From the IMG/VR virus record IMGVR_UViG_3300037067_011302, positions 96,001 to 160,000 of that record: DNA of 64,000 bases, one strand, 5' to 3'. Below are positions 4,575 through 63,714 of the stretch, in pieces. Every line of letters begins with the position of its first letter. Within the stretch, counting starts at the first letter, position 1. The notes under the pieces were generated by a model. The model was not told where the DNA came from. It searched no databases and saw only the letters and a list, made by a program, of their open reading frames with translations. Source of the DNA: a virus (taxonomy: Duplodnaviria; Caudoviricetes). The position numbers and the translations under genes were made by a program.

Positions 4575-5969
4575 TTAACCTCTCATGCGACCGACGACCA
4601 TCATTCTGACTCGATTGTCAACATCGTCCACCATTTTGTGAAGGTACTTTTTGTCAATGAGGCGGGCGACAGCTAATCGAACAATGGAACTCTCATCGTG
4701 CATCATTTCAGGGAGATATTTGGGATCAATGCGATCAACAACACTATTTCGAACCCTGTCACTCTCATCGTGCATCATCATGGGGAGGTACGACTTATCA
4801 ATCATAAAGGCAACCTCAGCACGAACGAACTTGTCAGGATCATTCATCATCCTTGGAAGATATGAACGATCAATTCGTTGTGCAACAATTTCACGTATTG
4901 CAGCATCCTCATCATCAATCATTAAAGGAACGTATTTTTGATTAATCAAACGAACGGCACGTTCACGTACGTCTCGATTTGCATTCTTTGCCACATGAGG
5001 AATGTGTGAAGGATCAATCCGTTCAAATACGATTGAATACACATCAAACGAGTCATCATTCGTCATCTGAGGTAAGAATTCAACGTCAATATTTTTTGCA
5101 ACTACGTGCCGAATTATGATCCTATCATGATGAACGAATCTCACTAAGAATGGTTTCGCAGCATCGCACTCTAAGATAGATTTCAACATAAAGACATCAT
5201 CTTCGTACAATTTTAGCGCCTGTTCGACATCTTTTTCTGTTGCAATGTTATTCTTGATCTTTGCGAGCATGCTCATCTCTCGCTTCGGAGCGTCTTGCTC
5301 GACGATCTTCAATAGATCCTTCAGTTCATCAGGAACTTCGTCAAGTTGAACATCCTCTGCATCGAAGATGTCAACCTCTAGTATGCTGTTGTCCACGTCT
5401 CGTTGTGCAGCGAATGCAACCTTGTAAAGATGATTTGTCTTCGGTAACGTCTTTGAGAGTGCAAAATAGAACACGACATTTGCACCCGTGTACCGTTCGA
5501 AGTATGAGTGTTCCTTCATCGTGATGCACCACTTGGTGCCTGAACCGTATAATTGTGAAGCGCCCCTATTTTTGATGTGGACAAGTTCGTAGTCGTTGTC
5601 CTCACCCATCTTCTCAACGCCAGACTCCTTCGTTGCCTTTCGTTCTTGTGTCTTAGTGGGTGTGATCGACTTCAGCTCATCCTCAAGTTCCTTCAACGTC
5701 TTGTACGCGTTGATGTCCCTGTTCTTGAACTTAGGTCCATTCTTGTGGAAGAATTCAATGGTCGGAATCAAGTCATTGATACTTGCTCCCATTGACAATT
5801 GCTTCACTCCCCACAACAAGTACTTCTGTGAACCCGACGGATCCGATGAAACTAACTCATCGATCTCCTTCTCGAGTTCAGGATACTTTTTCTTCGCGTC
5901 AGAGACGCGGTCCTCGAGCAGCAGAACTTCATGGATCAGACGACGTAGCGTTACGAGGACGATCTTCAT
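4575..5969 (-). CDS. HEAT/LRV-like repeat protein with an N-terminal 'LRRLIHE' leader and a 'GTKWCIT' domain
   Basis: 464 aa; the C-terminal part is ~24-aa repeats (YLPxMMxDxxxxVRxxVAxxID). Confidence 0.75.
   Translation of the reverse strand: MKIVLVTLRRLIHEVLLLEDRVSDAKKKYPELEKEIDELVSSDPSGSQKYLLWGVKQLSMGASINDLIPTIEFFHKNGPKFKNRDINAYKTLKELEDELKSITPTKTQERKATKESGVEKMGEDNDYELVHIKNRGASQLYGSGTKWCITMKEHSYFERYTGANVVFYFALSKTLPKTNHLYKVAFAAQRDVDNSILEVDIFDAEDVQLDEVPDELKDLLKIVEQDAPKREMSMLAKIKNNIATEKDVEQALKLYEDDVFMLKSILECDAAKPFLVRFVHHDRIIIRHVVAKNIDVEFLPQMTNDDSFDVYSIVFERIDPSHIPHVAKNANRDVRERAVRLINQKYVPLMIDDEDAAIREIVAQRIDRSYLPRMMNDPDKFVRAEVAFMIDKSYLPMMMHDESDRVRNSVVDRIDPKYLPEMMHDESSIVRLAVARLIDKKYLHKMVDDVDNRVRMMVVGRMRG
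4580..5150 (-). repeat. Coding tandem repeat, ~72-nt/24-aa HEAT-like units (about 8)
   Basis: Recurring LPxMxxD...VR...ID units in the translation; the DNA motif actctcatcgtgcatcat recurs 72 nt apart. Confidence 0.8.
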
Positions 5970-5974
5970 GCACG

Positions 5975-5981
5975 TAAGTAT
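5975..5981 (-). promoter_or_regulatory. Putative late-promoter motif ATACTTA
   Basis: 5 nt upstream of ATG 5969; the same ATANTTA motif recurs upstream of many structural and cargo genes. Confidence 0.5.
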
Positions 5982-5984
5982 GCA

Positions 5985-6701
5985 TCAGAGGTTCTTATTG
6001 ACAATCACAACAATCGTCTTCGTTGCACCGCTCTGAATGCCGGTGACGTTTACGTACATCTTGATCAACGTCTTGTCGGCCGTCGTGCCGTAGACCGTGA
6101 ACAAAGCGTCAGAAATGCTCTTGACCTGCAACGTGAACTGCACGCTCGATCCACCGTAGCTGTTCTCAGCCGGAGACCTGGTCACAATGTACGTTGCCTT
6201 CTGCTGCCCATCGATGTTCGTCGGCGTCTGTCGTTGAACCTGCAGAAACGCATTCGGAACGTCAATGATGAACGTCTGGTCACGCAGCTCAACGTCGATC
6301 GACGTCTCATTCACGATCGTCTGCTCAACAGTCATCGACGCAGTCTTCTGTTGATTCCTTCCCAACGTCACAGTCGACGTGGTGCCGTTGACGTTCGAGT
6401 CTCCTGACAGTGAGAAAGTCGGAAGCCTGAGTAAGTTAGGATTTGACACGCTGACGAGCTTATACTTCAACGCATGCGTTTGGTTCGTCATGCCCTCAAA
6501 GATCGGCGTGTTCTTCTCGATCTTCTCACGTCCCACGCTACGACCGTACTTCGTGATGATGCCGTAGTTGACCTCGTCATCTCCAAGCGCAAACTTAGTG
6601 ATCGAAAATGACCCGTCATTTCGAGCCAAGAACTGCCTCCCCGTGTCTGTGAGAACGCAGTCCATGATGATTGAATTGGTTGATGAATCGAGAAAACCCA
6701 T
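5985..6701 (-). CDS. Putative structural protein
   Basis: N-terminus 'MGFLD..IIMDCVLTDTGRQFLA..FSITKFALGDDEVNY' is a motif common in large-phage structural regions and resembles the N-terminus of 15210..16178. Confidence 0.6.
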   Translation of the reverse strand: MGFLDSSTNSIIMDCVLTDTGRQFLARNDGSFSITKFALGDDEVNYGIITKYGRSVGREKIEKNTPIFEGMTNQTHALKYKLVSVSNPNLLRLPTFSLSGDSNVNGTTSTVTLGRNQQKTASMTVEQTIVNETSIDVELRDQTFIIDVPNAFLQVQRQTPTNIDGQQKATYIVTRSPAENSYGGSSVQFTLQVKSISDALFTVYGTTADKTLIKMYVNVTGIQSGATKTIVVIVNKNL

Positions 6702-6818
6702 GATTTGTTCCTGTCAGAAATATCGGCGTTGAATCGATCTTACACCAGATCACTGACATGTCGCTCTAAGGGCCGCACAATTGACAATGGATGTCTCCTC
6801 ATCCAACGCTCAAAGGCG

Positions 6819-8765
6819 TCACCGTGACCTCTTGATGTCCTTCCTGACGGTCCTAGACGGTTTCAGCAGCTTCTTGTTCTTCGACGGCTCACCGACGGTC
6901 GTCCTATCATCGATCGAGACGTTTATGCGACCGTCACGTTGGTTGTCGAGGTTGATCACCTGCACAACGTACGAACCGACGTCCTGCTTCGTCGACACGA
7001 CCTTGACAGTCCGACCATCACCGTCAACGACAGAATAGAAATCAGGATTGAAGTACAACTTCGCGCGGCGCGATGATGAACCCGACGTCCTGATGGTGTC
7101 AACGAACGCATCAACGTTGATGTACATGTTTGGGTACGGCATCGGGGCACCGCTGTGACTGACCAACGTCCTCTTCAACTTATTTGAAAATTGGTCGAAC
7201 CACACCTCAAATTGTTCGGAATAGTTTGACGTGAATCCGTGAGCATCGATTGCAACGACTGCGTAGATGTATTTCGATTCGCTGGCTTTGAAATCATCGT
7301 CATAATAGAACGTATACGGAGTCGACGTCTTCTCAACTAATTCGGGCATCATCGTCTCACGCGAGGGTTGTGGCACGTCTGAGTCGTTGAAATCAAATGC
7401 CTTGATGAGCTCAAACGGACTCTCAACGTCCTTCCTACGAAAGACCTGAAATTGCTTGATGTCCCGCTGCGAATTTGGAGGAAATGCCCAGTGAATCATC
7501 AGACTACCGTGTGCGTTGACATCGAACGATGCTCCTGCTATCTGATTTCCTTCCAATAACGTAGAATTGATGCGTTCATAATCCCACGTAAAATTGAAGT
7601 CTGCAGGTGGAGGAGGTGCGATGTGTTCTTCAGTCACAACGTACGTCTTGTTTGACGGTCGTGAGCTGATCAACAACTTCAAGAATGCCAACGTTCCTGA
7701 GTCATCGTCTATCGCCGGAAGCACGAAGTGCGCAATCGCTCTGATCGCATACGCATACCTCGAACCGTACTTGACGTTGAAGTCAAGCGTGTGAAGTGTC
7801 TTCGGATTATCGATGACGATCGACGGGTGTGACTTCACTGTTCCATCATCAAAAATTTCAACCTTGTCGACGATGTACCCAACGATCTCTGGAACGTTGT
7901 CATTCGACGTAATGTTGCTCGGCATCACTCCGACGTGCTTGACAAACGTCTTGTAGTCTAACTCTGAGATTGTCTGCCTCCTCGATAGTGCTCTTCGTTG
8001 AAGTTTGTCAGCCGACGTACTGAGTGTGCCGACGTCAGACGCAAACGGTGAGTGAGGATCAACGATCGTGTCATTGATGATGTCGTTCACAAATCTGCTG
8101 CTGATCTGCACATTCACCGCAGCGTCCTTCTCCTCACGCAGTCTATCGGCAATGACCTGTACTCCTTCATTCTTGAAGAAACGTGCACCACTCGATTTGT
8201 CGAGCTGTGAAAGAGCGCCGTTCAAGAACGCCGGATTGATTGATTTTGGCGTCAAAGAATTCAACCTACTCGAGGCTTTGTGCGCACTGACATCTGAATC
8301 AATCACGTCTGTCGAACTAGCCTCACGCACGGTCAACGAGCCGGAGACAAATTGGTGTAGCTTGTCGTCCAATTCACCATCGTGAAAGTTGACGGCAACA
8401 TAATCGTCAGACGAAAACGTGTCCTCAGTGAGCACTTTGTCTAGGTTGTCACCGATCAATGATCCATATTGAACGCTACGAGGCAACGAGACATTTCGCT
8501 GTCGTGCTTCTGAAAATCTATGTTCAGACAAGACGGTTGCTTCCCAATTGAGGCTGACATACCTCGGAACGCGGGTCGACGCGTACTGGATGAAGTCTGA
8601 ATCGTACTCATCGGTACGCCGTGTTATCTCGCTCTGTGGCACGATTCCAACATCTGACGTGCACTCATCATGAACAAAGTAATTGTAGACGAACTTACCG
8701 ACGAACGACTTGACCTCAGGAACGTCGACGGCATAGACAAGACGTGAAGGCAGTGACGTTGACAT
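6819..8765 (-). CDS. Hypothetical protein with FN3-like beta segments (putative structural)
   Basis: 648 aa; 'YAYAIRAI' and 'YIYAVVAIDAHGFTSNYS' resemble FN3 C-terminal strands; coupled to its neighbours. Confidence 0.55.
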   Translation of the reverse strand: MSTSLPSRLVYAVDVPEVKSFVGKFVYNYFVHDECTSDVGIVPQSEITRRTDEYDSDFIQYASTRVPRYVSLNWEATVLSEHRFSEARQRNVSLPRSVQYGSLIGDNLDKVLTEDTFSSDDYVAVNFHDGELDDKLHQFVSGSLTVREASSTDVIDSDVSAHKASSRLNSLTPKSINPAFLNGALSQLDKSSGARFFKNEGVQVIADRLREEKDAAVNVQISSRFVNDIINDTIVDPHSPFASDVGTLSTSADKLQRRALSRRQTISELDYKTFVKHVGVMPSNITSNDNVPEIVGYIVDKVEIFDDGTVKSHPSIVIDNPKTLHTLDFNVKYGSRYAYAIRAIAHFVLPAIDDDSGTLAFLKLLISSRPSNKTYVVTEEHIAPPPPADFNFTWDYERINSTLLEGNQIAGASFDVNAHGSLMIHWAFPPNSQRDIKQFQVFRRKDVESPFELIKAFDFNDSDVPQPSRETMMPELVEKTSTPYTFYYDDDFKASESKYIYAVVAIDAHGFTSNYSEQFEVWFDQFSNKLKRTLVSHSGAPMPYPNMYINVDAFVDTIRTSGSSSRRAKLYFNPDFYSVVDGDGRTVKVVSTKQDVGSYVVQVINLDNQRDGRINVSIDDRTTVGEPSKNKKLLKPSRTVRKDIKRSR

Positions 8766-15203: not shown

Positions 15204-15209
15204 GATTCC

Positions 15210-16178: not shown

Positions 16179-16226
16179 TCCTGAGTGAAATATGGTTCTC
16201 GATGTCTACAGACGCCCGAATGAATT

Positions 16227-17384
16227 TCAAGTGCCGGGCGAAAATGCAATCGGGTAGACGATCGTGACAATTCCACCCTCAGGTTGTGGGAAGCTCAGGC
16301 CGTAGAAGGCCCTCGTCACGCAGGAGACGACGCCGCCGTCCGGAATGTCGCCACCGCCGCTCACGTTGGAGACCGTGCCGTCACGACCGATGACGAAGCG
16401 GACGATCACGCGCCCGGCGAGGCTCGGGTTGTTGCGCAGACCGTTCTCGTAGCAGAGGCGGAAGCGGCCGAAGTTCTGGCGCACGATTCGTTGTATCACT
16501 TCCGGCGGGAGCCTCCCGCTGACGCTCGTGGCACCAATCCTCACTCGTGGAACTGCGATCCTGTGTCCTCCTGACAAACCTGCACGTCCGAACCCAAATC
16601 CTTGACCTGGACCCATACCTGCACCATGACCGATCGTTCCAATCGATCCTAGACCGATTCCTTCACCCTTCCCATTTCCTCCCTCGCCGATACCACTCAA
16701 TCCAAGCCCACCAGCACCGTAGGACTCACCGATGTCGCGACCCCACATTGCTCCATTAGCACTCAACGGGTCACTACCTGAGGCACTCTCAAGACCCCAG
16801 ATGGCCGTTGGTGAGTCGGGGTCAGCACCTGCTCCTGAGTTGAGCAGCCCAATCACACCAAATTCAGCAGCATCGCGGAGAGCACGTTGACGAGCGATGT
16901 GAGGATCGACGTTGTCAGAGGGTCCCTTCACGGCATAACGATTTCCACTGAGATCGCTGTTGACATTCCCCATCGATCCCTCTTCGCCCTTTGCCCGAGT
17001 GCCTGTGCCTCCTTCATGTTCATCACGACCTACGTCAACGACGGCTTCATCCCTTTGCTCAAAATCACGTTCAGAAGAAGAATCAACGAGGTGCTTGATG
17101 AAATAGCGCTGATCTTCAGAAACAACATCATCGCCGATCATCGATGACGGAGGCATGAACATTGCCATCGCCGTGAGAACCATGCAACCAGACGATTTGC
17201 TGTCATTACAATTAAAGTAAAGTGCTTCACCTGATTTTTTTGCCTGTTGTGCAAACCGACGTATGCTAACATCTGGCATCGCATCAAACAACGTTTGTGC
17301 AAATTTCATGCCAGTGTTAATTGCATGCATATCGTTTTTTGCCTCACGTAACACTTCAACAACATATGATTTTAACACATACAT
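16227..17384 (-). CDS. AgmX/PglI C-terminal domain (GltG/TonB-C-like) protein of myxobacterial origin with a phage-type N-terminal leader
   Basis: C-terminal 'SGRLPPEVIQRIVRQNFGRFRLCYENGL..NPSLAGRV.VRFVIGRDG.VS...VVSCV.RAFYGLSFPQPEGGIVTIVYPI.F' and Gly-rich linker 'GTRAKGEEGSMG...GLGLSGIGEGG' resemble Polyangiales GltG-like gliding proteins. Confidence 0.85.
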   Translation of the reverse strand: MYVLKSYVVEVLREAKNDMHAINTGMKFAQTLFDAMPDVSIRRFAQQAKKSGEALYFNCNDSKSSGCMVLTAMAMFMPPSSMIGDDVVSEDQRYFIKHLVDSSSERDFEQRDEAVVDVGRDEHEGGTGTRAKGEEGSMGNVNSDLSGNRYAVKGPSDNVDPHIARQRALRDAAEFGVIGLLNSGAGADPDSPTAIWGLESASGSDPLSANGAMWGRDIGESYGAGGLGLSGIGEGGNGKGEGIGLGSIGTIGHGAGMGPGQGFGFGRAGLSGGHRIAVPRVRIGATSVSGRLPPEVIQRIVRQNFGRFRLCYENGLRNNPSLAGRVIVRFVIGRDGTVSNVSGGGDIPDGGVVSCVTRAFYGLSFPQPEGGIVTIVYPIAFSPGT

Positions 17385-17465
17385 AAATAATATGTATTAT
17401 TCGCGAAATCGTGAAAAAACGTCTGGTGTTGGGCAAATGAACTGTCGATATGTGAAACTCATTTG

Positions 17466-17762
17466 CTAACGATCCGCCCAGAAAGAACGTCTTTCCTCTG
17501 CCACTTTACGAACTTTCGGGTCAACGTCATTCAACATTGATTCAACGTGTTGACCAATCCTGAGCACGACCTCATATCGCACGTGGCTATCATCGTCTTC
17601 CATCATCTAAGTGAGGTATTCTTTGTCAATGTGTTGAGCAACAAAACGACGTACTCTTATGCTCTCATCGTTCATCATCTAGGGGGAAGCAGCAGCACGA
17701 TCTTCTAGAAGGACGATCGATTCCCTGATCAGACGTCTCAACACGAAAATACGCATCTTCAT
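17466..17762 (-). pseudogene. Short paralogue of the HEAT-repeat protein 4575..5969, interrupted by two in-frame TAG codons
   Basis: Manual translation: MKMRIFVLRRLIRESIVLLEDRAAASP*MMNDESIRVRRFVAQHIDKEYLT*MMEDDDSHVRYEVVLRIGQHVESMLNDVDPKVRKVAEERRSFWADR*. Confidence 0.75.
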
Positions 17763-17831
17763 AGATGCAATTAGACGTGTAACGACAATGACAGGAAATG
17801 ATGAGATTTAACTACTAAATCTTGTTAGATG

Positions 17832-19241: not shown

Positions 19242-19300
19242 TCTTTTGCCTTCAGTTAGTGTACTACATCACAGCGATGCTTACATTGAAATTGACCGCA

Positions 19301-20044: not shown

Positions 20045-20077
20045 AATTCCTTTCCTTAATTAGGCACCATCGTCAAT

Positions 20078-23960: not shown

Positions 23961-24803
23961 ATGACAAAGATGACTCTCAAAGAACACATGCAGATCAAGA
24001 AGACGCGCGGCATTGTCAAAAAGGCACACCTCAGTGAGTCATTCCAAAAGAAGGGCAAAGTGACGATCAACGAGGCACTCAAGAAAGAGGACCTCGACAA
24101 GATGACGAAGATCATTGACAGCATTAGAGCACTGAAGAACTACGGTGTTGCATCGATCAGTGATGCCGCCGAAAAAGCAGCGCTCGATGCAGCAAATTAC
24201 ATCAGCAAGGGAACGGTTGGAAAAGCATGGAGTAGTCTCAAGACGATGTTCACGTCAGGTAAGGCAAATCCTGTCGCGAAGGCCGCTGGATTTGTATCAC
24301 TCGTAGGAGGTGCGTGCAGTCAAATGCCTCAAATCATCAAGAATGTTGTTGGAAATTTCGAGGCAACGAGCAACCAAACGTTGACCCAACTCGTCACAGA
24401 CGAAAAGAAAAAGAAGCAATTGAACGATCTGCTGATGAAGGCGTTCACTCCTGACAATCCGCTCGAAAAATTCTACGGAAATACAAATGCATTCGTGAAA
24501 GACGTCATGAACACTCCGTTAGAGAGCATCTCGAAGCTCGTCGACGGCGTTGCAAAGCTGAGTCCTGCCGTTGAAAGCATCATGAAATCTCAGGCAACAG
24601 AACAGCCCCAGCAAGCTCAGCAGCAAGCACCCGGCACGAAGCCAGCCGAAAAACAAAATGTGTCGACCGACAATGAAGCTGCCGCGGCGCTTTCAAAGAA
24701 GATGAATGACCCTGATTTCACATTGAAATTGTTGAAACTTGCGTCAGATCCGGAGACCAAGCAACTGATGCTACGGTTGATCAATCAGCCAGCAAATCAG
24801 TGA
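23961..24803 (+). CDS. Lys/Ala-rich helical hypothetical protein (possible virion internal protein)
   Basis: Counter-oriented in a minus-strand block; N-terminal LxE/IxE motifs (TLKE, HLSE, TINE); Q/P-rich linker. Confidence 0.6.
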   Translation: MTKMTLKEHMQIKKTRGIVKKAHLSESFQKKGKVTINEALKKEDLDKMTKIIDSIRALKNYGVASISDAAEKAALDAANYISKGTVGKAWSSLKTMFTSGKANPVAKAAGFVSLVGGACSQMPQIIKNVVGNFEATSNQTLTQLVTDEKKKKQLNDLLMKAFTPDNPLEKFYGNTNAFVKDVMNTPLESISKLVDGVAKLSPAVESIMKSQATEQPQQAQQQAPGTKPAEKQNVSTDNEAAAALSKKMNDPDFTLKLLKLASDPETKQLMLRLINQPANQ

Positions 24804-36151: not shown

Positions 36152-36388
36152 TTAGATAGAACCGAAATTGCCGCCTCGTCGAGGACGATCTGCGCCGGCC
36201 ATAGGAAAGTGTCCCACGTGTTCTGAATGAGCACGCTCTTCCTCTGCACACTCAGGACACAGTTCTTCGTCGGTGCAGAATGGGCACATCTCTTTGTCGT
36301 CTTCTTCTGGGAATCCAACGTCAGGTTCGTTCTCCTGCCACTCACGTAGCACGCACTTGATGAATCGTTTCAGAGTGTCCTTTGTCAT
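36152..36388 (-). CDS. Small acidic zinc-finger protein with an 'LKRFIKCVLRE' leader
   Basis: CPFC..CPEC motif; counter-oriented; CTATTTA motif at 36394-36400. Confidence 0.6.
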   Translation of the reverse strand: MTKDTLKRFIKCVLREWQENEPDVGFPEEDDKEMCPFCTDEELCPECAEEERAHSEHVGHFPMAGADRPRRGGNFGSI

Positions 36389-36670: not shown

Positions 36671-37822
36671 ATGTTTCGCGCGGTCAAAACCAAGTTGGAT
36701 AATCTTTTGGAATCTGAGATTCAGTCTCTTAGAGAAACCCAGCGTATTGCAACGAACGTGTACAATGACTATGTCAACTACGCGTTTGAGCACCAAAAGT
36801 GCTCAAGGTTCGACCTACAGAAGGCGTTGTACTATGTTGAACGGGAGAAGTTTCCTGAATTTCATTCTTCACTCGTTCAATCGATCATCGTTGAAGTAAT
36901 GAGTGCACTCAAGGCGGTCAAGTACAAGTTTCGCCCACACCGGAGTGAGAACGCTTCTCTCACGTATGACGTGAGGATGTTCAAATTACGAGGTGATCAA
37001 CTTTCGCTCAGCACGACAGGAAAGCGCTTCAGGACGATCATTCAGTTTCCTGACTGGTGTAAAGACATCATTAAGGAAGGAAAATCAAAGACAATTCAAC
37101 TTATTTGGGACAGGAAAAATCAGCGGTTTGATGCTCGGATCGTGTTCAAACTTCCCGATGTTGAGAAGAAGGACGAAGGTAAGGTCATCGGAATTGACCA
37201 AGGATTGGTCAATTTGGCAGTCACTTCAGAAGGTGAATTTTTTGGTGCGAAGAAAACAAGGAGGAATCAAAGGAAGTTTTTATTTTTGAGGAGAAAGCTC
37301 TCGGCAAAAGGCACTCGTTCCGCAAAGAGATTGTTGAAAAATCTCAGTGGAAAAGAGAAGCGGTTTAACCGAGACGTAAATCACTGCATTGCAAAGAAGC
37401 TTGCGTCACGTAGTGACGTAAAGGCATACGTCATTGAGGATCTCAAGGGAATCAGGAACCAAAAATGTGGGAAAAAGCTTAACAAACTTCTTTCCTCATG
37501 GACGTTCTGTCAACTTGAATCTTTCCTCACGTACAAGTGCCTTGCGAATGGAATCTCCGTTCAAAAAGTGAGTCCAGCGTACACCTCACAGAAGTGTTCA
37601 AATTGTGGACGGATCCATAAAGAGAATCGTAATCAAGGACGTTACGTTTGTGATAAGTGTGGGTTCAAAATTCATGCAGATGTAAACGCAGCGATCAACA
37701 TACGAGATAAGTGGGTCTCAAAATCATCCTATGGTTTAGCCCATAGGCAGGGTACATTCGATTGCCCGAACGGGAATAACAGAAATGTCAAGTCCCAAGA
37801 TCATCACATAGGTAATGGTTAA
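36671..37822 (+). CDS. tnpB: IS200/IS605-family RNA-guided nuclease TnpB (no tnpA)
   Basis: RuvC-I GIDQG, RuvC-II IEDL, 'YTSQKCSNC...CDKC', RuvC-III HADVNAAINI. Confidence 0.93.
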   Translation: MFRAVKTKLDNLLESEIQSLRETQRIATNVYNDYVNYAFEHQKCSRFDLQKALYYVEREKFPEFHSSLVQSIIVEVMSALKAVKYKFRPHRSENASLTYDVRMFKLRGDQLSLSTTGKRFRTIIQFPDWCKDIIKEGKSKTIQLIWDRKNQRFDARIVFKLPDVEKKDEGKVIGIDQGLVNLAVTSEGEFFGAKKTRRNQRKFLFLRRKLSAKGTRSAKRLLKNLSGKEKRFNRDVNHCIAKKLASRSDVKAYVIEDLKGIRNQKCGKKLNKLLSSWTFCQLESFLTYKCLANGISVQKVSPAYTSQKCSNCGRIHKENRNQGRYVCDKCGFKIHADVNAAINIRDKWVSKSSYGLAHRQGTFDCPNGNNRNVKSQDHHIGNG

Positions 37823-43251: not shown

Positions 43252-43574
43252 CAACTGCGTTCATGTTTGTGTTCCTATTTGCGTGGTTGATCACGACGAT
43301 CGGTCTTGTGATTAGCATCTCAAAGAACGTCAAGTTGATTGAAAAGCTCGATCGCGTTGCCGAACAGGTTGAGAAGTCACTTGATGTGATTGACACAAAG
43401 TACGCAAAGATAGCGTACATCGCGTCGACGCCGGTGTTGTCGAATGAACCACAGATCAAGTCGTTGATGTCAAACGTTCGTGACACAAAGAATGCAATCA
43501 TTGACATCGTCAATGCACTCGTTGATTCGGTCAACGATGAAGAGACTAAGACAGAAAGTGACGTAGACGAGTGA
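43248..43574 (+). CDS. Small membrane-anchored protein
   Basis: N-terminal hydrophobic helix followed by a coiled region. Confidence 0.6.
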   Translation: MTTAFMFVFLFAWLITTIGLVISISKNVKLIEKLDRVAEQVEKSLDVIDTKYAKIAYIASTPVLSNEPQIKSLMSNVRDTKNAIIDIVNALVDSVNDEETKTESDVDE

Positions 43575-44323
43575 TGGAAAAAAAAGAAATCGTAAAGAAA
43601 TCACGTGCTCCTCGTGGTTCAAAGCAGAAGGATCCTTCGAAGCTATACTTTCACAAGGGAACTCAGGCGGCAATCGTTGCCTACCAACAGGTCGTAGACA
43701 ACCAAAAGGAACGTGAAAAGATATACGTCACCGACATCCTTCCGGCATTTACACGATTGGTGGAGAATCTCATCAACGTGTACAAGTTTGCATCGCTTCA
43801 CGATTCGTTCGATGACTTGAAGCACGACTGTGTCAACTTCTTGTTCGAGTCAATCGGCAAGTTTGACAACACCCGTGGGACCAACGCATTCTCGTACTTC
43901 AACGTCGTTGCGAAGAATTTTCTCATTGTGAGGACGAAGCAGAAGGCACAGAGGATCAAACGTAGCATCAGCATGGACGACGTCAGGGCACTCAACACGC
44001 ACGAGTGCAGCATCGTAGAGGAAAATTCGACCATACCTGCGCAGGATCTGGTGTATGAAAATGCAACGATCACGCACAATATAATCAAAATGTTGTACGA
44101 GATTCGTTCGAAGATGAGGACGGACAACGAACTCGTCTGTATCAATTCGATCATCACCATATTTGAACACATCGACGACATTGACATCCTGACGCGCAGT
44201 GCAATTCACCTCTACATTCGTGAAATGTCAGGACTCAGTCCAAAGCAACTGTTGACGAGCATGCAAGCGATAAAGAAGCACTACAAGAAGATGAAGCTCG
44301 ACATGGGTCCCGATCTTTTTTGA
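43574..44323 (+). CDS. Phage RNA polymerase sigma factor (gp55-like, putative late sigma)
   Basis: Region-2-like 'LVENLI...DDLKHDCV.FL...KFD..RG.NAFSYF..VAKN'. Confidence 0.75.
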   Translation: MEKKEIVKKSRAPRGSKQKDPSKLYFHKGTQAAIVAYQQVVDNQKEREKIYVTDILPAFTRLVENLINVYKFASLHDSFDDLKHDCVNFLFESIGKFDNTRGTNAFSYFNVVAKNFLIVRTKQKAQRIKRSISMDDVRALNTHECSIVEENSTIPAQDLVYENATITHNIIKMLYEIRSKMRTDNELVCINSIITIFEHIDDIDILTRSAIHLYIREMSGLSPKQLLTSMQAIKKHYKKMKLDMGPDLF

Positions 44324-47900: not shown

Positions 47901-47905
47901 GATGC

Positions 47906-48373: not shown

Positions 48374-48375
48374 GA

Positions 48376-48918
48376 TCAATGATCTCTTTCTAGTTCTTCT
48401 TCAATATCTAGAAGATCTGCCCAAAAACCATTTCCTTCTGAATCCTCACCAGCGAGCGTAAAATCGAAACCATCACCGCCCGTAGCATCAATGAGTTGTT
48501 GGAGTGAATCATATCCCTCGCTATTCATAGTTTCTTGAATTTTCTTTTGAACGTTGCGAGGCAGTGCATTGAACGCAGCATCATAATCAAAAGCGTCTTT
48601 CGCACCAGGAACGTTAAATTCAATCCATCCTGGATCATTCGGTAGTGGACCGTTATTTCCATTCATGTCTGCACAAGATGGATGATAATGAAACTTTATT
48701 CCGTTGCCTCGTGGTGTGCCAAAGTCATCTTCTGTTGAAGTGCCAAAAATATCATCGTGTTGTTTCTTAGAGAACGCATCACATCCTACGTTTGGACACT
48801 CAACGCTGTTCATTCCAATGTACGCGTCTTTTCCACCACATTGTGGACACGTTGCCTCGTGGACAATGTGTTCAATGAGAGTACGTAGTCGTTTCATTGA
48901 CAATTTCATAGTCTTCAT
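48376..48918 (-). CDS. Zinc-ribbon protein with an 'LRTLIEHIVHE' leader
   Basis: Counter-oriented; CPQC..CPNVGC module shared with 62906..63583; ATATTTA upstream. Confidence 0.7.
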   Translation of the reverse strand: MKTMKLSMKRLRTLIEHIVHEATCPQCGGKDAYIGMNSVECPNVGCDAFSKKQHDDIFGTSTEDDFGTPRGNGIKFHYHPSCADMNGNNGPLPNDPGWIEFNVPGAKDAFDYDAAFNALPRNVQKKIQETMNSEGYDSLQQLIDATGGDGFDFTLAGEDSEGNGFWADLLDIEEELERDH

Positions 48919-48940
48919 GGTATAGTTTGACTCCAAATGT

Positions 48941-48947
48941 TAAATAT
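48941..48947 (-). promoter_or_regulatory. Putative late-promoter motif ATATTTA
   Basis: Upstream of a GGAG RBS and ATG 48918. Confidence 0.5.
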
Positions 48948-49047
48948 TAGCTTTTTTCAGTGCACATAACAATTAACCTGTCACGATTGTGACGCAATCT
49001 ACGAAGCAGGAAGAGTTGGAACCCACGACGATACCTACAATAGGCAC

Positions 49048-50892: not shown

Positions 50893-52409
50893 TGTATCGC
50901 ATCTATCGTGCCGACAAGGACGCATACATCACGGATCGCGTGATCAACACGGTGCGTCGCACCGGAGCAAACACTGGTAGGTGTGGTACGCTTGACCTGT
51001 TTAAGTTGTACGGGTACAACGTCAGCGGTTCATCTGCAGAACCACTGTATGAACTCTCGAGGTTACTTGTCCACTTTGACATCACTGGACTACGAACGTT
51101 GTTCGACGACGGGAAGTTTGATCCTGGAAATTCGAGCTTTTCATGCACTCTCAAGTTGTTCGACGTCTACGGTGGACAACCCACACCTGCAAATTTTACC
51201 GTCACGGCGTCACCATTGTCACGCTCGTTTGACGAAGGCTTGGGACGTGACCTCGTGCAGTACGCCGACACGGATGCGTGCAACTTTCTGACGGCTTCAT
51301 GGACATCAGGCAGCTGGTATGCAAGTGGGTGCGGCCTCGGCGGCGTGTCTGGGCAGTCTGTCGATTTCATTACGTCATCGTTGGCAGGAACTTCACTATC
51401 GTCAGAACAACTGTTTCACACCGGTGAAGAGGACCTTGAACTTGACGTCACGACTGTCATTTCTGCAACGTTGGCAGGCACGATCGACGATCACGGGTTT
51501 AGAATTGCACTGTCGTCTAGCCTAGAGGACGACGTTCACACCTACTTCGTCAAGAGATTTGCGTCTCGTCACGCGTACGATGAAAGCAAGCACCCAAGGT
51601 TGATCGTCAGGTACGATGATTCAATCGAGGACGATTCGCAAGACCTGTACCTCGACGCAACCAGCACGTTGTTCATGCACAATTACGTCAGAGGAGTGCA
51701 CGCAATATTAGCGTCAGGTTCGGCGTTGACGCCGATCACGGGAACAAACTGCGTGATCCTAAAATTGTCGACTGACATTTCAGGCGGTACATACACGTTG
51801 GCGTTCTCGGGTTCTCAACACTTCTCTGGCATCAACGCGGTGATGGGTGTCTATTCAGCGAGCGTCTACATTCCATCGACGAATGCGAACGTCATCTCAA
51901 AGTTGGCACTGTCAAGTTCAATCGCGTTCACGCCAGTGTGGGGTTCCGTTGATGGTTCTGTCGGGTACGTGACCGGGTCAACGATCTATGCGTACCCTGC
52001 GCAACGTGTTGCTGCAACGATCGATTCGTCTAGGTACCACGTCAACATTTATGGTCTCAGGGAGAGCTACAACACGACTGACACAATCTCTGCACGTGTT
52101 AACGTGCTTGACCATTCATCGCCGACGATCAGGCTGGTGAAGACACCTGTCGAACTTCCTGGAGTCGTCCTACGCGATGTTCACTTTCAGGTCCGCGACG
52201 CTGTGACGAACGTCATCGAGATTCCATTTGACACGGTGTACAATTCAACGAGGTGCTCGAGCGATTCAATGGGAATGTATTTTTCGATTGACGCATCGTC
52301 GTTGACGAAGGATCGTTCATACGTTGTGGACGTGTCAATGAACGTCGGCGATGGAAGGCACGTCTACAAGGCAGCATCTCCTACGTTTAGAGTGAGCGAC
52401 GTTCAGTGA
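50892..52409 (+). CDS. Putative baseplate/tail structural protein
   Basis: Coupled to the gp6-like gene; 'ADKDAYIT...SRLLVHFD...FASR...PRLIVRYDD'. Confidence 0.6.
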   Translation: MYRIYRADKDAYITDRVINTVRRTGANTGRCGTLDLFKLYGYNVSGSSAEPLYELSRLLVHFDITGLRTLFDDGKFDPGNSSFSCTLKLFDVYGGQPTPANFTVTASPLSRSFDEGLGRDLVQYADTDACNFLTASWTSGSWYASGCGLGGVSGQSVDFITSSLAGTSLSSEQLFHTGEEDLELDVTTVISATLAGTIDDHGFRIALSSSLEDDVHTYFVKRFASRHAYDESKHPRLIVRYDDSIEDDSQDLYLDATSTLFMHNYVRGVHAILASGSALTPITGTNCVILKLSTDISGGTYTLAFSGSQHFSGINAVMGVYSASVYIPSTNANVISKLALSSSIAFTPVWGSVDGSVGYVTGSTIYAYPAQRVAATIDSSRYHVNIYGLRESYNTTDTISARVNVLDHSSPTIRLVKTPVELPGVVLRDVHFQVRDAVTNVIEIPFDTVYNSTRCSSDSMGMYFSIDASSLTKDRSYVVDVSMNVGDGRHVYKAASPTFRVSDVQ

Positions 52410-52438
52410 GGTATTATCTCTCTTGCTATGGAGTAATT

Positions 52439-53638
52439 GTGTCTCATTTATCACACAAAATCAGGCTATATCCGAACAAACAGGTCTTGAACTATTTCGT
52501 TCAAGCCGTGGGTACGGCGCGATTTTCCTGGAATTGGGCACTTGCTAAGTGGCAGGAACTCTATAAAAAAGGCGTCAAGGATCTTTCAGGATACACACTC
52601 GATAAGGAATTCAATAGGATCAAAAAGGAAGAATTTCCTTGGACGAAAGAAATAGCTGCGCATATTACTGATGTGTCGATTCAAAATCTTGGAAATGCGT
52701 TCAAGAGGTTCTTTAATAAGAAATCGGGATATCCAAAATTCAAGAAGAGAGGTGTTTCAAAGGAATCATTCTATGTTAGGTTGAACAATTCGAAAGTCGT
52801 AGGTAAGTTTCTAAGGATTCCACGTCTCAAGTCATCAATTCGAATGGCTGAAGAAGTGAGGTTTCCTGGAAAGATCAAAAGTGCGGTGATCTCGAAGGGT
52901 TCCAACGGAAATTGGTACGCATCCTTTGGGATCGAGTTGGATGAGTCATACGTCTATCCACACAAGTGTGAGAGCCAAGCACGAGTTGGTGTGGACCTCG
53001 GAATCAAGACGCTCGCCGTCTGTTCCAACGGAACAAGGTTTGAGAACCCGAAGTGTTACAGGACACGTGAGAGGAAGATCAGGTCGTTGAGCCAATCTCT
53101 CTGCCGAAAGAAGAGAGGTTCTTCGAACCGGATGAAGGCACGGATTAAGTTAGCATGTGCTCACGTGAGGATCAGGCGGATTAGATTGGACGCAATTCAT
53201 AAGATGACCTCTATGATCGTGAAAAGGTTCAAAGTGATCTGCATCGAGGATCTCAACGTTAAAGGCATGCTCAAGAACCACTGTCTTGCGAAGTCAATTT
53301 CTGACGCATCATTTTCTGAGATTCGGCGTCAATTGGTGTACAAGTCGAAGTTGAGTGGGTCAAAGTTGATCATCGTGAATAGATTTTTCCCATCGAGCAA
53401 GTTGTGTTCCGATTGCGGACACAAGATGGAAGAACTTGATCTCTCGATCCGTGAATGGGTGTGTCCTGAATGTGGTGTTGTTCACGATCGTGACCTGAAC
53501 GCTGCACAAAATTTGGAAAAGTGGGTCGCCCCGGGACATGAGGAGACCAAAAACGCCCGTGGAGATGGTGTTAGACGAGCGAGGGTTCGCAAGAACCCAC
53601 GTGAGCAGCTGTCTGTGAAGCAGGAAGTCACATTGTGA
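52439..53638 (+). CDS. tnpB: RNA-guided nuclease TnpB (IS200/IS605/IS607 OrfB; no tnpA)
   Basis: 'HKIRLYPN' HTH, GVDLG, IEDL, PSSKLCSDC..CPEC, DRDLNAA; GTG start at 52439 with GGAG RBS. Confidence 0.95.
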   Translation: MSHLSHKIRLYPNKQVLNYFVQAVGTARFSWNWALAKWQELYKKGVKDLSGYTLDKEFNRIKKEEFPWTKEIAAHITDVSIQNLGNAFKRFFNKKSGYPKFKKRGVSKESFYVRLNNSKVVGKFLRIPRLKSSIRMAEEVRFPGKIKSAVISKGSNGNWYASFGIELDESYVYPHKCESQARVGVDLGIKTLAVCSNGTRFENPKCYRTRERKIRSLSQSLCRKKRGSSNRMKARIKLACAHVRIRRIRLDAIHKMTSMIVKRFKVICIEDLNVKGMLKNHCLAKSISDASFSEIRRQLVYKSKLSGSKLIIVNRFFPSSKLCSDCGHKMEELDLSIREWVCPECGVVHDRDLNAAQNLEKWVAPGHEETKNARGDGVRRARVRKNPREQLSVKQEVTL

Positions 53639-53654
53639 CATATCAGAGGATCAG

Positions 53655-57209: not shown

Positions 57210-57290
57210 CGAAGCTAAATAGCAATGTGCTAAATTGAACACATCGACAATTGATTCGTCGAATTGCATCATTTGTTGTAGGATGTAATC

Positions 57291-58487
57291 GTGCCTCACC
57301 TGACCCATAAAATCAGATTGTATCCAAACAAACAGGCCTTGAGTTACTTCGCTCAAGCAGCGGGTACGGCTCGATTTTCTTGGAACTGGGCACTCGCCAA
57401 GTGGCAGGAACTTTATAAACAGGGCATCAAGGGTCTCTCAGGGTACACACTTGACAAGGAATTCAATAGGATCAAGAAGGATGAATTTCCTTGGACGAGT
57501 GAAATGTCTTCACAAGTCACTCAGGTATCGATCCAAAATCTTGGAAAGGCGTTCAAGGGATTTTTCAATGGAAAAGGGTATCCAAAGTTCAAGAAGAGAG
57601 GTGCATCGAAAGAATCGTTTTATGTTGGACTGAATAATTCAAAAGTTGTAGGTAAATTCTTAAGGATCCCACGACTCAAGTCGTCAATTCTGATGGCGGA
57701 AGAAGTGAGGTTTTCTGGGAAAATTAAAAATGCAGTGATCTCGAAGGGTTCTGACGGAAACTGGTACGCTTCGTTCGGGATCGAGCTGGACGAAAGTTAC
57801 GTCTATCCACATAAGTGTGAGAGCCAAGCACGAGTCGGTGTGGACCTTGGAATCAAGACGTTAGCAGTCTGTTCCGATGGTACGAGATTCGAGAACCCAA
57901 AGAGTTACAGGACACGTGAGAGGAAGATCAAGTCGTTGAGCCAATCTCTTTGTAGAAAGAAAAGAGGTTCTTCGAATCGGATGAAGGCACGGATCAAGTT
58001 AGCATGTGCTCATGCAAGAATCAGGCGGATCAGGTTGGACGCGATTCACAAGATGACAACGTCAATCGTGAAGAGGTTCAGAGTGATCTGCATCGAAGAT
58101 CTCAACGTGAAAGGCATGTTAAAGAACCACTGCCTTGCGAAGTCAGTTTCAGATGCATCATTCTCTGAGATTCGACGTCAGTTGGCGTACAAATCGAAAC
58201 TGAGTGGGTCAGAGTTGAACATTGTGAATAGGTTCTTCCCATCGAGCAAATTGTGTTCAGATTGTGGGCACAAGATGGAAGAACTTGATCTTTCGATTCG
58301 TGAGTGGGATTGTCCTGAGTGTGGCGCGGTCCATGACAGGGACCTAAACGCCGCACAAAATTTAGAAAAGTGGGTCGCCTTGGGGCACAGGGAGACCGAA
58401 AACGCCTGTGGAGATGGTACAAGACGTGTAAAGGTTCGCAAGAACCCATCAACGCAACTATTTACGAAGCAGGAAGTCACACTGTGA
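57291..58487 (+). CDS. tnpB: RNA-guided nuclease TnpB (close paralogue of 52439..53638; no tnpA)
   Basis: Same motifs as the 52439 copy; catalytic D-E-D intact. Confidence 0.95.
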   Translation: MPHLTHKIRLYPNKQALSYFAQAAGTARFSWNWALAKWQELYKQGIKGLSGYTLDKEFNRIKKDEFPWTSEMSSQVTQVSIQNLGKAFKGFFNGKGYPKFKKRGASKESFYVGLNNSKVVGKFLRIPRLKSSILMAEEVRFSGKIKNAVISKGSDGNWYASFGIELDESYVYPHKCESQARVGVDLGIKTLAVCSDGTRFENPKSYRTRERKIKSLSQSLCRKKRGSSNRMKARIKLACAHARIRRIRLDAIHKMTTSIVKRFRVICIEDLNVKGMLKNHCLAKSVSDASFSEIRRQLAYKSKLSGSELNIVNRFFPSSKLCSDCGHKMEELDLSIREWDCPECGAVHDRDLNAAQNLEKWVALGHRETENACGDGTRRVKVRKNPSTQLFTKQEVTL

Positions 58488-58507
58488 TGTGTCAAGGATA
58501 GACGTAC

Positions 58508-60346: not shown

Positions 60347-60355
60347 GGAATAACA

Positions 60356-60751
60356 ATGGCAATCGTCTACAATGATTGGTCAGGTGGAATCGCATCACAG
60401 GGATGCGTGACGGTCATCGGTGCGACCAGAACACGGTTGGGTTACGTGCTCGACGCTGACTTACCAGCATCGGCGGGAGCAAATAAAGCACTGATCAAGG
60501 TTTCATTATCAGCCCGCGCGACTTCCGGTGACTACATGTGTGGGCACGACATTTATGAATTCAACGGTGGCGAAGGTTCGCATGACTGGCTAATCCTGGA
60601 TCGTAGTTGGTTGTCGAGCGGCGCTGACAACTGGACAGTTGAATTTGCTGACGGCACTGACCTGGAGTTATTCTTCACCGGCGAGGCTGCACACACGATT
60701 GACGTAGGTTACACGATTGAGATTTTGAATAAGTCGAGGTACTCGCTGTGA
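60356..60751 (+). CDS. Hypothetical protein (tail region)
   Basis: 131 aa, GAGGA RBS. Confidence 0.6.
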   Translation: MAIVYNDWSGGIASQGCVTVIGATRTRLGYVLDADLPASAGANKALIKVSLSARATSGDYMCGHDIYEFNGGEGSHDWLILDRSWLSSGADNWTVEFADGTDLELFFTGEAAHTIDVGYTIEILNKSRYSL

Positions 60752-61800
60752 ACACACTTGATGAATTTAACATCACGTCAATCGGCTACAGGGACCTCGC
60801 CGGCGCCGGAACGAATGAGATCAACACGATCTGTTCTGCAACGTTGCCGGACGGCACAATCTCACTCGTTACGTCGTACTTTAATGCATGTGAAGATGCC
60901 AGTCCATCGAATGAAAGGTACGGATTCATTCAATCTCTTGTACAGAGGTCAGGTTCAAATGTGTCGATCATTGGAACAGTGACGTCGTCGATTGCGGGTT
61001 CAATGGACTGGCAGTTCATCATGTCATCCAGTTCGTCAACATTGTTGACAAGCCTCTCATCGTCTGACGCAAAGATTAAAAACGTGAACGTCACGATGCA
61101 CGTTGAGCCAGCGTTTACAATGTTCGATCCAATGATCCTATCGCCCCTCGCGTACTATAAAGCCGTTCCAAAGAACCTTGCATTCGATGCGACTGGAAAG
61201 GTGACGACGCTATTGAATTCTGTGTCAACGTCGTACATGTTAACACAATCAAATGCAACGTTAAGACCATCGTACTCTCCACGAGCAACGTGGCACACTT
61301 CCAACGCACAATCACATTATCTTCAATCAGGACCGATCCCGTTGGCATCAGGTGATCCTGTGTACACGATTGCATTTGTCGCGGAATTTACAAGCCTTCC
61401 AGCCGCTGGTGAATTTCCTCACATCATTCAAATAGGTGCATCAACGTTGTCAGGCGTTCGTATCTACCTTGCACCTGGAAATACGTGGGTCATCTATCAT
61501 GATGGTGTGGAGTACGCAGCATTTTCAGCCACTCCACCCACCGGATCGTGCTTCAGTGGTGTTGCATATTATGACGGAACGAACATTGCAATGACAATGA
61601 ATAATGTTGTGATTAGAACGCCAACGCCTCTTGGTAATCTCACAGAACCAACAGTATGTACAACATTTGGATCTGACAATACAGGTGCGTACATATTCTA
61701 TGGAAAGATCTACGAGGCCGCGGTCTACGATCGGTGTCTCACTGCCGACGAAAGAAGACGATTGTCTGCTTATTACACCTCGATGTATGGCGTTGCGTGA
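60748..61800 (+). CDS. LamG/ConA-like domain protein (putative tail appendage)
   Basis: C-terminal 'FYGKIYEAAVYDRCLT..E...L..Y'. Confidence 0.7.
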   Translation: MNTLDEFNITSIGYRDLAGAGTNEINTICSATLPDGTISLVTSYFNACEDASPSNERYGFIQSLVQRSGSNVSIIGTVTSSIAGSMDWQFIMSSSSSTLLTSLSSSDAKIKNVNVTMHVEPAFTMFDPMILSPLAYYKAVPKNLAFDATGKVTTLLNSVSTSYMLTQSNATLRPSYSPRATWHTSNAQSHYLQSGPIPLASGDPVYTIAFVAEFTSLPAAGEFPHIIQIGASTLSGVRIYLAPGNTWVIYHDGVEYAAFSATPPTGSCFSGVAYYDGTNIAMTMNNVVIRTPTPLGNLTEPTVCTTFGSDNTGAYIFYGKIYEAAVYDRCLTADERRRLSAYYTSMYGVA

Positions 61801-61807
61801 GGACTAA

Positions 61808-62902
61808 ATGACATCTTACTACGACACAATCAGTGGAAAAGTTGCGTCTGGAATCGCCTACGTTTCTGGCTCCGGAATTGCAACCATCTGTCGCTATACG
61901 CCGACCGACGGACACATCGTCAACGTGCGCGCACCCTACATAGCCGTTGCCGTGTCAGGAGACTGCAGAGGTGGAATTGTGTCAGGTGCAATCTATCGCT
62001 CCGGATCTGTGACGTCGATATTGTCCACGGGTCACGATTCACTCTCAAGTGGTTCAACGGCTTCCTCATGGTCATGCAACCTCGACTCGCTCGGCACTGA
62101 CGTGTTGCTGTCATTCACTGGTTCAGTGGATGCTGTAAAGGTCGCCGGTTCGATGACAGCGTCTCCGAGCACACTTGCGTGGAATCCTCTATTGTTGTCT
62201 CCTATGGCATACTACGTTGCCACGTCGTCAGTCATGACGTTGAGTGGGAACGACGTTGTCCAGTGGAACGATGCATCGGGCAACGGATATCACCTCGGAC
62301 AGGCGACCGAATCAAAGAGGCCTCACCTCGTCGATGCACCGACGATCACCAACAACACGATCGGCAGAAAGTCGCCGGCCGTGCAGTTCACCAAAGCAGC
62401 AACACAGTTTCTCACCGGCACGGTGTTACCTTACCTGACGTCTTCATACACAATGTCGTCGGTCGTTCGAATGAACACTGGAAGCTGGCCGAATGCATCA
62501 CAGACGAATTGTCTTTGGATCAACGGTGAGGTTGCAGGCTCAGGACAATCAGTTGACATACGCATCTTGTCAACCGTCCTCGGCGTTCTTCTCTACCACG
62601 CGCCGCCAATCAACGCAATGTGTTTCAATGGCGTTGCGGAGAGCTATGAGCCCAAGTCGGTGTCAGTGAGGTACGGTTCTGATGTCGGTGAGGTGAGGTA
62701 CGGAAGTGACGTTGCGACTGCTGCGATGGTAACGTCGTCGATTGCCGTCGGATTTAACACGATCGGTGCACGAGCAAATACTTCTTCAGATGCGTTCGAC
62801 GGCTACGTGCACGAGATGTCAATCTACAATCGACGATTGGATGACGCTGAAATTGCGATGCTGTCGCAGTATTACCTGTCACGATATGGCACGCCGGCGT
62901 AG
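61808..62902 (+). CDS. LamG/ConA-like domain protein (putative tail appendage)
   Basis: 'V.QWNDASGNGYHL.Q' and 'FDGYVHEMSIYNRRL'. Confidence 0.75.
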   Translation: MTSYYDTISGKVASGIAYVSGSGIATICRYTPTDGHIVNVRAPYIAVAVSGDCRGGIVSGAIYRSGSVTSILSTGHDSLSSGSTASSWSCNLDSLGTDVLLSFTGSVDAVKVAGSMTASPSTLAWNPLLLSPMAYYVATSSVMTLSGNDVVQWNDASGNGYHLGQATESKRPHLVDAPTITNNTIGRKSPAVQFTKAATQFLTGTVLPYLTSSYTMSSVVRMNTGSWPNASQTNCLWINGEVAGSGQSVDIRILSTVLGVLLYHAPPINAMCFNGVAESYEPKSVSVRYGSDVGEVRYGSDVATAAMVTSSIAVGFNTIGARANTSSDAFDGYVHEMSIYNRRLDDAEIAMLSQYYLSRYGTPA

Positions 62903-62905
62903 GCG

Positions 62906-63583
62906 TCAAACGTCATCGATGTCTGTCGTGTATTCGAAATCGACGTCACTCTCATCGGGATTGTAGACACCCGCTCCAGGAAGCCAGTAATCCCTCAAGA
63001 ATTTTCTTATGTTTTCCTTGGGACCCTCGACAGAAAAAATTGGATTACCATGTAGATCGGCCTTGCCGTCGACAAACTCGCAGTCAAGTTTGAGCGGCGC
63101 GCAAACCGTTTTAGCCCATGACAAATTGTCAGAGCATGATGCCTTGTAAATTTTTTCAACGCTCGCATCGACAACGTCATCTTTCATGCCAACGTCATCA
63201 TATTGTTTCTGCGAAAATGAACTGCACTTTCTTTCAGGACACTCGACATCGTTCATCCCAATATACGCATTTTTGTTGCCACACTTTGGACAGACGGCTT
63301 CATCAACGCCGAAGTTGGTACGCCGCCAACCCATCATTCCTCGAGCAGCCTTTCCTTTACGTGACAGGCTTCCCAACACCTCACGCGCGATCGTTTGAGT
63401 CGTTGGTGTGCCACTGTCGAGCATGAAGTCGGCAACATCGTGCACTGTCTTTGCACCGGCTGACAGTGCCTGCAGAGCTAGGTCTTCACGTTCCTTGTCT
63501 TCCCAAGAATCTCCACGTGATTCACGCACGACTTGTTTGATCAATCCACGTAGTTGGCCAGGTGACAATTTCATAGTTTTCAT
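62906..63583 (-). CDS. Zinc-ribbon protein with an 'LRGLIKQVVRE' leader
   Basis: Counter-oriented; shares the CPxC..AYIGMN.VECP..C module with 48376..48918; ATAGTTA at 63599-63605. Confidence 0.7.
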   Translation of the reverse strand: MKTMKLSPGQLRGLIKQVVRESRGDSWEDKEREDLALQALSAGAKTVHDVADFMLDSGTPTTQTIAREVLGSLSRKGKAARGMMGWRRTNFGVDEAVCPKCGNKNAYIGMNDVECPERKCSSFSQKQYDDVGMKDDVVDASVEKIYKASCSDNLSWAKTVCAPLKLDCEFVDGKADLHGNPIFSVEGPKENIRKFLRDYWLPGAGVYNPDESDVDFEYTTDIDDV

Positions 63584-63714
63584 GGTGATTCCGATGATTA
63601 ACTATGTTTGTGCACGTGTATTGTCGCAGACGTTGTGTGATTTGTAATTGTGTTGCACGTGGCCGAACATGTTCATCGCTTTCTACTTAGAGGTGTCAAC
63701 TACAGGAATTCACG

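Follow-up and report, generated by a model that had tools for sequence, protein, structure and literature searches.

The 64,000-nt window considered here comprises bases 96001 to 160000 of a single 184,219-bp virus record (IMGVR_UViG_3300037067_011302; Caudoviricetes; CheckV completeness, ~54%) and contains a set of genes whose products begin with a similar amphipathic leader peptide, a candidate tag for loading proteins into the phage capsid. An initial annotation had listed six such genes, all on the minus strand and named here by their first coordinates (5969, 17762, 17384, 36388, 48918, and 63583), and a weaker match at 23961 on the plus strand. We called open reading frames (ORFs) over the whole 184-kb record, built a leader profile from the leaders, and ran it on the six-frame translation. 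All six leaders translate exactly where they had been placed. The leader profile does not detect the plus-strand gene (23961..24803), which has an ATACTTA motif 22 nt upstream and is not a leader gene by this measure.

The 5969 gene (4575..5969, minus strand; profile score, 24.7) encodes the leader followed by a conserved virus-only domain and HEAT/LRV repeats. It is one of six intact paralogues in the record, all combining the leader and the conserved domain with variable repeats; its own HEAT match is weak, and strong HEAT/LRV matches are found in its paralogues. The ORF of the 17762 gene is only 27 codons long, and the gene is a relic of the 5969-type family (17466..17762, minus strand), in which the leader is followed by two in-frame TAG codons inside HEAT/LRV-like repeats and the upstream motif is degenerate. 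Both TAG codons occupy the same position of successive LRV-like repeats, with ATGATG after each. The relic reads as a decayed, duplicated repeat unit rather than as a case of recoding, though the coincidence of the TAG positions is odd; suppression of the two codons is unsupported, since no tRNA genes were found in the record.

The 17384 gene (16227..17384, minus strand; leader score, 9.1) encodes a short, weak copy of the leader, then ~55 novel residues, and finally the C-terminal half of a myxobacterial FHA-AgmX/PglI protein. Residues 69 to 385 are 71% identical to residues 356 to 673 of a 674-aa bacterial protein, and on this similarity we regard the gene as a clear and fairly recent fusion of host DNA to the leader. 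The captured gene points to a Polyangiaceae-type myxobacterium as the host. The 36388 gene (36152..36388, minus strand) encodes a 78-aa leader protein with two CxxC pairs; it is a single gene in antisense orientation, and TATTTA begins 11 nt before the ATG, leaving a spacer of 5 nt.

The two remaining genes are paralogues. The product of 48376..48918 (minus strand), which lies antisense between two baseplate wedge genes, consists of the leader, a zinc ribbon, and a variable C terminus, and that of 62906..63583 (minus strand), likewise an antisense single gene, has an insert of ~75 residues between leader and ribbon. Both probably start at the second ATG (48909 and 63574, respectively), because these starts give the canonical leader spacing and one close homologue starts there; a homologue search with the 63583 protein returned only one close relative. 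The first 21 bases of the two leaders are identical at 20 positions, while the flanks are at random identity. Both genes lie antisense inside the baseplate/tail module, and at the corresponding junctions of two related records, the orthologues of the neighboring genes are directly adjacent. Because these junctions are empty, the two genes appear to be lineage-specific insertions, or else to have been lost in both relatives. Scans for sigma-70 promoters and terminators around the antisense genes gave results at chance level, and an AlphaFold model of the zinc-ribbon protein (5 sequences; mean predicted local distance difference test [pLDDT] score, 49.5) was unusable.

The payloads originally proposed for these genes (HEAT repeats, zinc ribbons, and a host gliding protein) all hold, the first as HEAT/LRV repeats and the last as the C-terminal half of the myxobacterial AgmX/PglI protein. 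The proteins had also been described as otherwise unrelated, which needs correction: the 5969/17762 and 48918/63583 genes are paralogue pairs, leaving four independent cargo families in the window rather than six. Similarly, the description of single genes set against local transcription stands for the 36388, 48918, and 63583 genes, which are minus-strand genes among plus-strand genes; the gene at 23961 is the reverse case, yet by profile it carries no leader.

The leader consensus is M-K-x5-L-(R/K)-x-Φ-(I/V)-x-E-x-Φ, with the conserved Leu at residue 8 in most copies. The leader motif is enriched at N termini in the full record: in 59,077 residues, a 9-residue core pattern matched 15 times within the first 35 residues of the called ORFs and 3 times in the remaining ~52,000 residues, compared to a mean of 0.45 matches in shuffled proteins. 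With the profile, ~20 N-terminal copies were recovered from the record, some of them in head-module genes absent from the ORF calls, and the 20 leader proteins represent 14 cargo families once the leader is trimmed off. The leaders are strongly amphipathic (helical hydrophobic moment of 1.59 versus 0.73 for other N termini, P = 2e-10). Codon choice is free between leader copies, and therefore the constraint acts on the protein. Inspection of the sequences for a Sec/Tat signal peptide, made by eye with no predictor, revealed no uninterrupted hydrophobic core following a basic N-region; charged residues recur every 3 to 4 positions, and the helical hydrophobic moment is high. Leader-like segments also occur away from N termini, in the middle of a 328-aa protein (approximately residues 145 to 165, with no adjacent start codon; L001:6783-7769, minus strand) and as a second such segment at the C terminus of a 98-aa leader protein (L003:13137-13433, minus strand), and these may represent two-module or double-ended propeptide designs.

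The leader could have no shared function at all: the copies might resemble each other by chance or might retain traces of common ancestry in small, rapidly evolving genes. Four of the six listed genes indeed form two paralogous pairs, and unrelatedness of small ORFans cannot be demonstrated. However, this view does not account for the excess of N-terminal matches, for the fixed register of the motif, for its retention across hundreds of representatives of one family (described below), for the demonstrable fusion of a host gene fragment to the leader in one cargo, or for leaders retained where the rest of the protein diverges completely. Given the enrichment statistics and the host-gene fusion, we set this explanation aside as extremely improbable.

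The initial annotation held that most of the listed genes have their own ATANTTA-like upstream motif, and the record agrees: of 21 leader genes, 15 have the hexamer TA[CTG]TTA no more than 40 nt upstream, as do 14 of the 151 other genes, compared to an expectation of ~0.007 per gene. Examples on the minus strand are ATACTTA at 5975..5981, whose TACTTA core ends 5 nt before the ATG of the 5969 gene, ATATTTA at 48941..48947 upstream of the zinc-ribbon gene, and ATAGTTA at 63599..63605. There are 74 occurrences on both strands of the whole record, ~3.6-fold fewer than the ~270 expected from base composition (a rough estimate), and 29 of these copies lie within 40 nt upstream of starts. For nine leader genes, the distance from the motif start to the ATG is 11 nt, and the resulting 5-nt spacer cannot accommodate a Shine-Dalgarno sequence; counting spacers of 4 to 5 nt, the motif ends next to the start codon in these nine genes and in three others. 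A ribosome-binding site would fit upstream of some leader genes.

The 14 other genes with the motif are mostly structural and include both sheath paralogues, the scaffold gene, and several large tail genes. The record also encodes a gp55-like late sigma factor (window 43571..44323, plus strand; phrog_234, E = 9.5e-7). Because the motif is shared with structural genes and such a factor is present, we read TA(C/T/G)TTA as the general late promoter of the phage rather than as a cargo-specific element, with the gp55-like protein as its likely reader. Where the motif abuts the start codon, it would yield leaderless or near-leaderless late mRNAs. The idea that promoter and leader travel as one portable cassette does not survive these observations, as the motif also serves sheath, scaffold, and tail genes, and sharing of leader DNA is limited to the zinc-ribbon pair.

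It is also conceivable that the leader serves another process, such as recognition by a modifying enzyme (as in ribosomally synthesized and posttranslationally modified peptides [RiPPs]), membrane or pole targeting, or degradation (as a degron), or that it helps leaderless late mRNAs to be translated efficiently. Amphipathic helices are able to associate with membranes, and the nine genes lacking a Shine-Dalgarno sequence would fit a role in translation. On the other hand, some leader genes have space for a ribosome-binding site, and an RNA-level signal is at odds with conservation at the protein level and free synonymous codon choice. For a RiPP-like tag, we searched for radical-SAM genes (PF04055) and found none in the 184-kb, ~54% complete record, and positive controls responded. 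Such processes would also leave unexplained why the founding family is so tightly linked to the prohead protease and why the leader matches the protease rule, both described below, and we consider them unlikely as the function of the leader.

The phage encodes T4-type head proteins. Its major capsid protein belongs to the Gp23 family (Pfam, E = 1.7e-75), its prohead protease is of the T4 gp21 type (Peptidase_S77, E = 1.1e-19), and baseplate wedge genes are also encoded in the record. The closest capsid proteins among known phages, those of a 484-kb uncultured phage, Flavobacterium phage immuto, Microcystis phage Mel-JY01, and Rhodothermus phage RM378, are <50% identical, and on the basis of these relatives we assign the phage to the “Far-T4” phages (PMC4360716). 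A megablast search of 20 kb against known phages gave no match. The protease gene (L005:7502-8554; genome 79502-80554, minus strand) contains an intein, with the protein alignable with T4 gp21 (5JBL) on either side of it; the intein spans residues ~80 to 226, as judged from the gap in the gp21 alignment, and adjoins a conserved D-H-P motif.

The leader profile also matched three small head-module genes around the portal, protease, and scaffold genes. Two of them, encoding 135-aa and 87-aa proteins, lie between the protease and the scaffold/capsid genes, and the third, encoding a 102-aa protein, lies just upstream of the portal gene (1538 codons; L005:9439-14055; genome 81439-86055, minus strand). 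The 135-aa protein belongs to an uncharacterized family with 741 representatives at E ≤ 1e-3. In a 50-sequence alignment, its first 25 residues are the most conserved part, with M1, K9, E14, and E18 invariant and K2, L8, K13, C15, L16, L20, and G23 nearly invariant. In all 21 related loci with enough sequence, the prohead protease gene is followed, after 6 to 520 nt and in the same orientation, by the start of a family member. In the present record, a peptide deformylase gene (phrog_2890, 2.8e-34; L005:6599-7117; genome 78599-79117, minus strand) is found between the two, and the relatives have no genes at this place.

Because the conserved N terminus of the 135-aa protein matches the leader and its gene sits behind the prohead protease gene, the cargo leaders are best read as copies of the first ~18 residues of this protein. 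An AlphaFold model (50 sequences) places a helix at residues 5 to 28 (pLDDT > 90) within an extended, all-helical, noncompact protein, and this shape, together with the gene position, suggests a role in the prohead core. A BFVD fold search with the model returned no match at E < 1. Likewise, Pfam and PHROGs searches with 10 small leader proteins and the head-module proteins identified no family; the one exception was the gene upstream of the portal gene, with a weak scaffold hit (E = 0.0015).

The cleavage sites of T4 gp21 follow L/I-x-E, and 10 N-terminal residues of internal protein IPIII are enough for capsid targeting (PMC9026906). In the present phage, [LIV]xE ends at residues 8 to 24 in 19 of 20 leaders but in only 30 of 151 other proteins (P = 4e-11); the enrichment persists among nonredundant leaders (13/14, P = 6e-8), and the Glu residues concerned are usually Glu14 and Glu18/19. 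In the zinc-ribbon family, an [LV]xE located 2 to 3 residues before the ribbon is invariant in 5/5 members, even where an insert of ~75 residues follows the leader, and the C termini of these five proteins are mutually unrelated.

Related tripeptides are found in the structural proteins. When the capsid protein was aligned with mature T4 gp23*, the T4 cut fell near residue 55, between L-L-E51 and L-R-E60, and reading by eye, with no alignment, revealed I-S-E, V-S-E, and L-M-E in the corresponding stretch of the capsid N termini of Mel-JY01, immuto, and RM378, respectively. The capsid protein itself (L005:1698-3599, minus strand) is long, 633 aa versus 521 in T4, with an insertion of ~200 residues (roughly residues 125 to 330) between two gp23-aligning blocks. 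T4 gp24 and gp22 begin with short peptides ending in L-R-E and I-A-E, and T4 ipII and ipIII begin with the published capsid-targeting sequence (CTS).

Leader genes are not confined to this record. Close relatives of the protease are encoded at 24 IMG/VR loci, and the head modules there carry leader genes. Five long related records contain 3 to 12 leader genes each (E down to 3e-6), some in tandem arrays; in one of them (G003), four leader genes directly follow a sheath-like gene (L046:1501-2793, plus strand), and two of these are zinc-ribbon relatives of the 48918 gene. In contrast, the control phages immuto, Mel-JY01, RM378, and PA5oct (130 to 287 kb each) gave either no leader match or one weak match. 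Clustering of the 47 leader proteins encoded in 6 partial genomes gave 33 cargo clusters, and only the head-module proteins are widely shared. The internal proteins of T-even phages show the same pattern of diverse cargo with only the CTS conserved (PMC3012670). Among the larger cargo proteins, residues 39 to 191 of the 5969-type family resemble a PA5oct protein annotated as structural by electrospray ionization tandem mass spectrometry (ESI-MS/MS).

These data also bear on a purely structural explanation, in which the helix is an assembly (co-scaffolding) module and the small acidic leader proteins serve as additional subunits of the core or scaffold, to be degraded and expelled as the head matures, rather than as cargo for delivery to the next host. 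In its favor, a conserved head-module protein, all-helical in the model, begins with the leader; a short length, an acidic linker, and a basic tail characterize many leader proteins; and [LIV]xE sites are in twofold excess in the scaffold protein. Such a role may apply to the small acidic proteins. Yet co-scaffolding would not explain why the leader also heads six paralogous repeat proteins of 400 to 500 aa, a host-derived domain, and zinc-ribbon proteins whose C termini are hypervariable, and the almost complete turnover of cargo between relatives is unlike that of structural scaffold parts. Moreover, the PA5oct homologue is present in mature virions. We therefore judge that this explanation, too, has only a small chance of being correct.

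We favor, and consider probable, the explanation that the leader is a CTS like that of T4 but longer and specific to this lineage. Under this model, a gp55-like sigma factor would transcribe the leader genes late in infection from TA(C/T/G)TTA motifs, producing mRNAs with little or no 5′ leader from the nine genes in which the motif ends 5 nt before the ATG. Residues ~3 to 18 of each product would form an amphipathic helix, a copy of the N-terminal helix of the 135-aa protein, through which the tagged proteins could co-assemble with the scaffolding core as the prohead forms. The T4 gp21-type serine protease would then cut after the Glu of (L/I/V)-x-E at residue 14 and/or residues 18 to 19, freeing the cargo in the head, and the cargo would exit with the DNA at the next infection. 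Core binding, cleavage, retention in the head, and ejection of the cargo are thus steps that we predict from the sequences.

The initial annotation had already proposed a T4-like capsid-targeting role, and its core fits the gp21-type protease, the derivation of the leader from a protease-linked gene, the (L/I/V)-x-E tripeptides, the late motif shared with structural genes, and the virion homologue in PA5oct; what does not fit is the cassette idea, and some of the cargo proved to be paralogous. Several observations weigh against the capsid-targeting model. The [LIV]xE motif is short and its Glu belongs to the leader consensus, so that the cut-site match is not fully independent of the leader motif. 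Compared with the N termini of T4 ipII and ipIII (NC_000866), the leader has only the M-K start and the I-x-E end in common, and hhalign detected no relation between the 135-aa family and T4 gp68 or gp22. The family is also without a Pfam or PHROG assignment (a Pfam scan of 50 members returned nothing meaningful). The cargo of the 17384 gene is a periplasmic-type host domain encoded among baseplate genes and preceded by a truncated leader, and it could be a tail component instead. Finally, the record covers only about half of the genome, and the host of the phage is uncultured.

More broadly, we tentatively suggest, as a possibility short of an even chance, that the first ~18 residues of a core protein serve as a transferable address label in a whole clade of large phages of the Far-T4 type, one marked by hundreds of representatives of the protease-linked 135-aa family. 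In that case, the “effectors” that each phage injects would be readable from sequence alone, giving a list of the proteins that uncultured large phages carry in the capsid and deliver with their DNA. In T4, the internal proteins carried in the capsid are counter-defense and host-takeover factors. The set predicted here would include hypervariable binder repertoires (HEAT/LRV repeats and zinc ribbons with variable C termini) as well as freshly captured host domains, and the gliding-motor TonB-like domain, as captured cargo, may act in the periplasm during entry. If the leader works as proposed, it would also reveal the origin of such a tag, in the copied N-terminal helix of a core protein, and the way in which cargo is acquired, a host gene at 71% identity being one case. 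The T4 CTS, rather than being restricted to a few T-even proteins, would represent a general design among distant T4-like phages, and the short helix might be usable as a packaging handle for engineering.

Other features of the record are peripheral to the leader genes. Stop codon use is 75% TGA. TnpB/transposase-like genes are found in the tail-gene region of the window at 36671-37822, 52406-53638, and 57291-58487 (all plus strand); a phrog_506 match (8e-53) is available for the first of these, the only one for which the search was run. One of the three genes adjoins the antisense leader gene at 36152-36388.

The principle of capsid targeting by an N-terminal peptide is known from T4, and the CTS has already been suggested as an evolutionary means of loading varied proteins (PMC9026906, PMC3012670). 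What is new here is the sequence and length of the tag, its origin in a conserved protease-linked gene family, and its presence on ~20 genes in half a genome, as well as its layout in dispersed antisense single genes, the position of the late motif directly before the start codon, and the kinds of cargo. In T4, the CTS is carried by IPI, IPII, IPIII, and Alt and is removed by gp21. The two systems are alike in having a short N-terminal M-K...I-x-E peptide (here a putative propeptide) on otherwise unrelated proteins, a gp21-family protease in the phage, and cargo that is hypervariable between relatives, and some of the cargo genes stand in tandem arrays, as in the T-even internal protein loci. 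Late expression, predicted here from the upstream motif, would be a further likeness. The differences are considerable. The T4 CTS is 10 residues long and occurs on four genes, whereas the leader here has 14 to 19 residues and another consensus, is also found on a conserved gene next to the protease gene, and is carried in many copies by dispersed antisense single genes. Unlike in T4, the cargo includes HEAT/LRV repeat proteins of 400 to 500 aa and a host-derived periplasmic domain.

Giant phages of the phiKZ/SPN3US type provide a second comparison, as many of their head-internal or ejection proteins are cut after S/A-x-E by a diverged gp21 homologue (PMC9026906, PMC7411985). They resemble the present phage in having a gp21-related protease, a large set of head-internal proteins, and processing after Glu, the last two of which are predicted here. 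In contrast, these giant phages have no single shared N-terminal tag and have S/A at the P3 position, whereas in the present phage the predicted P3 is L/I/V and one leader is reused.

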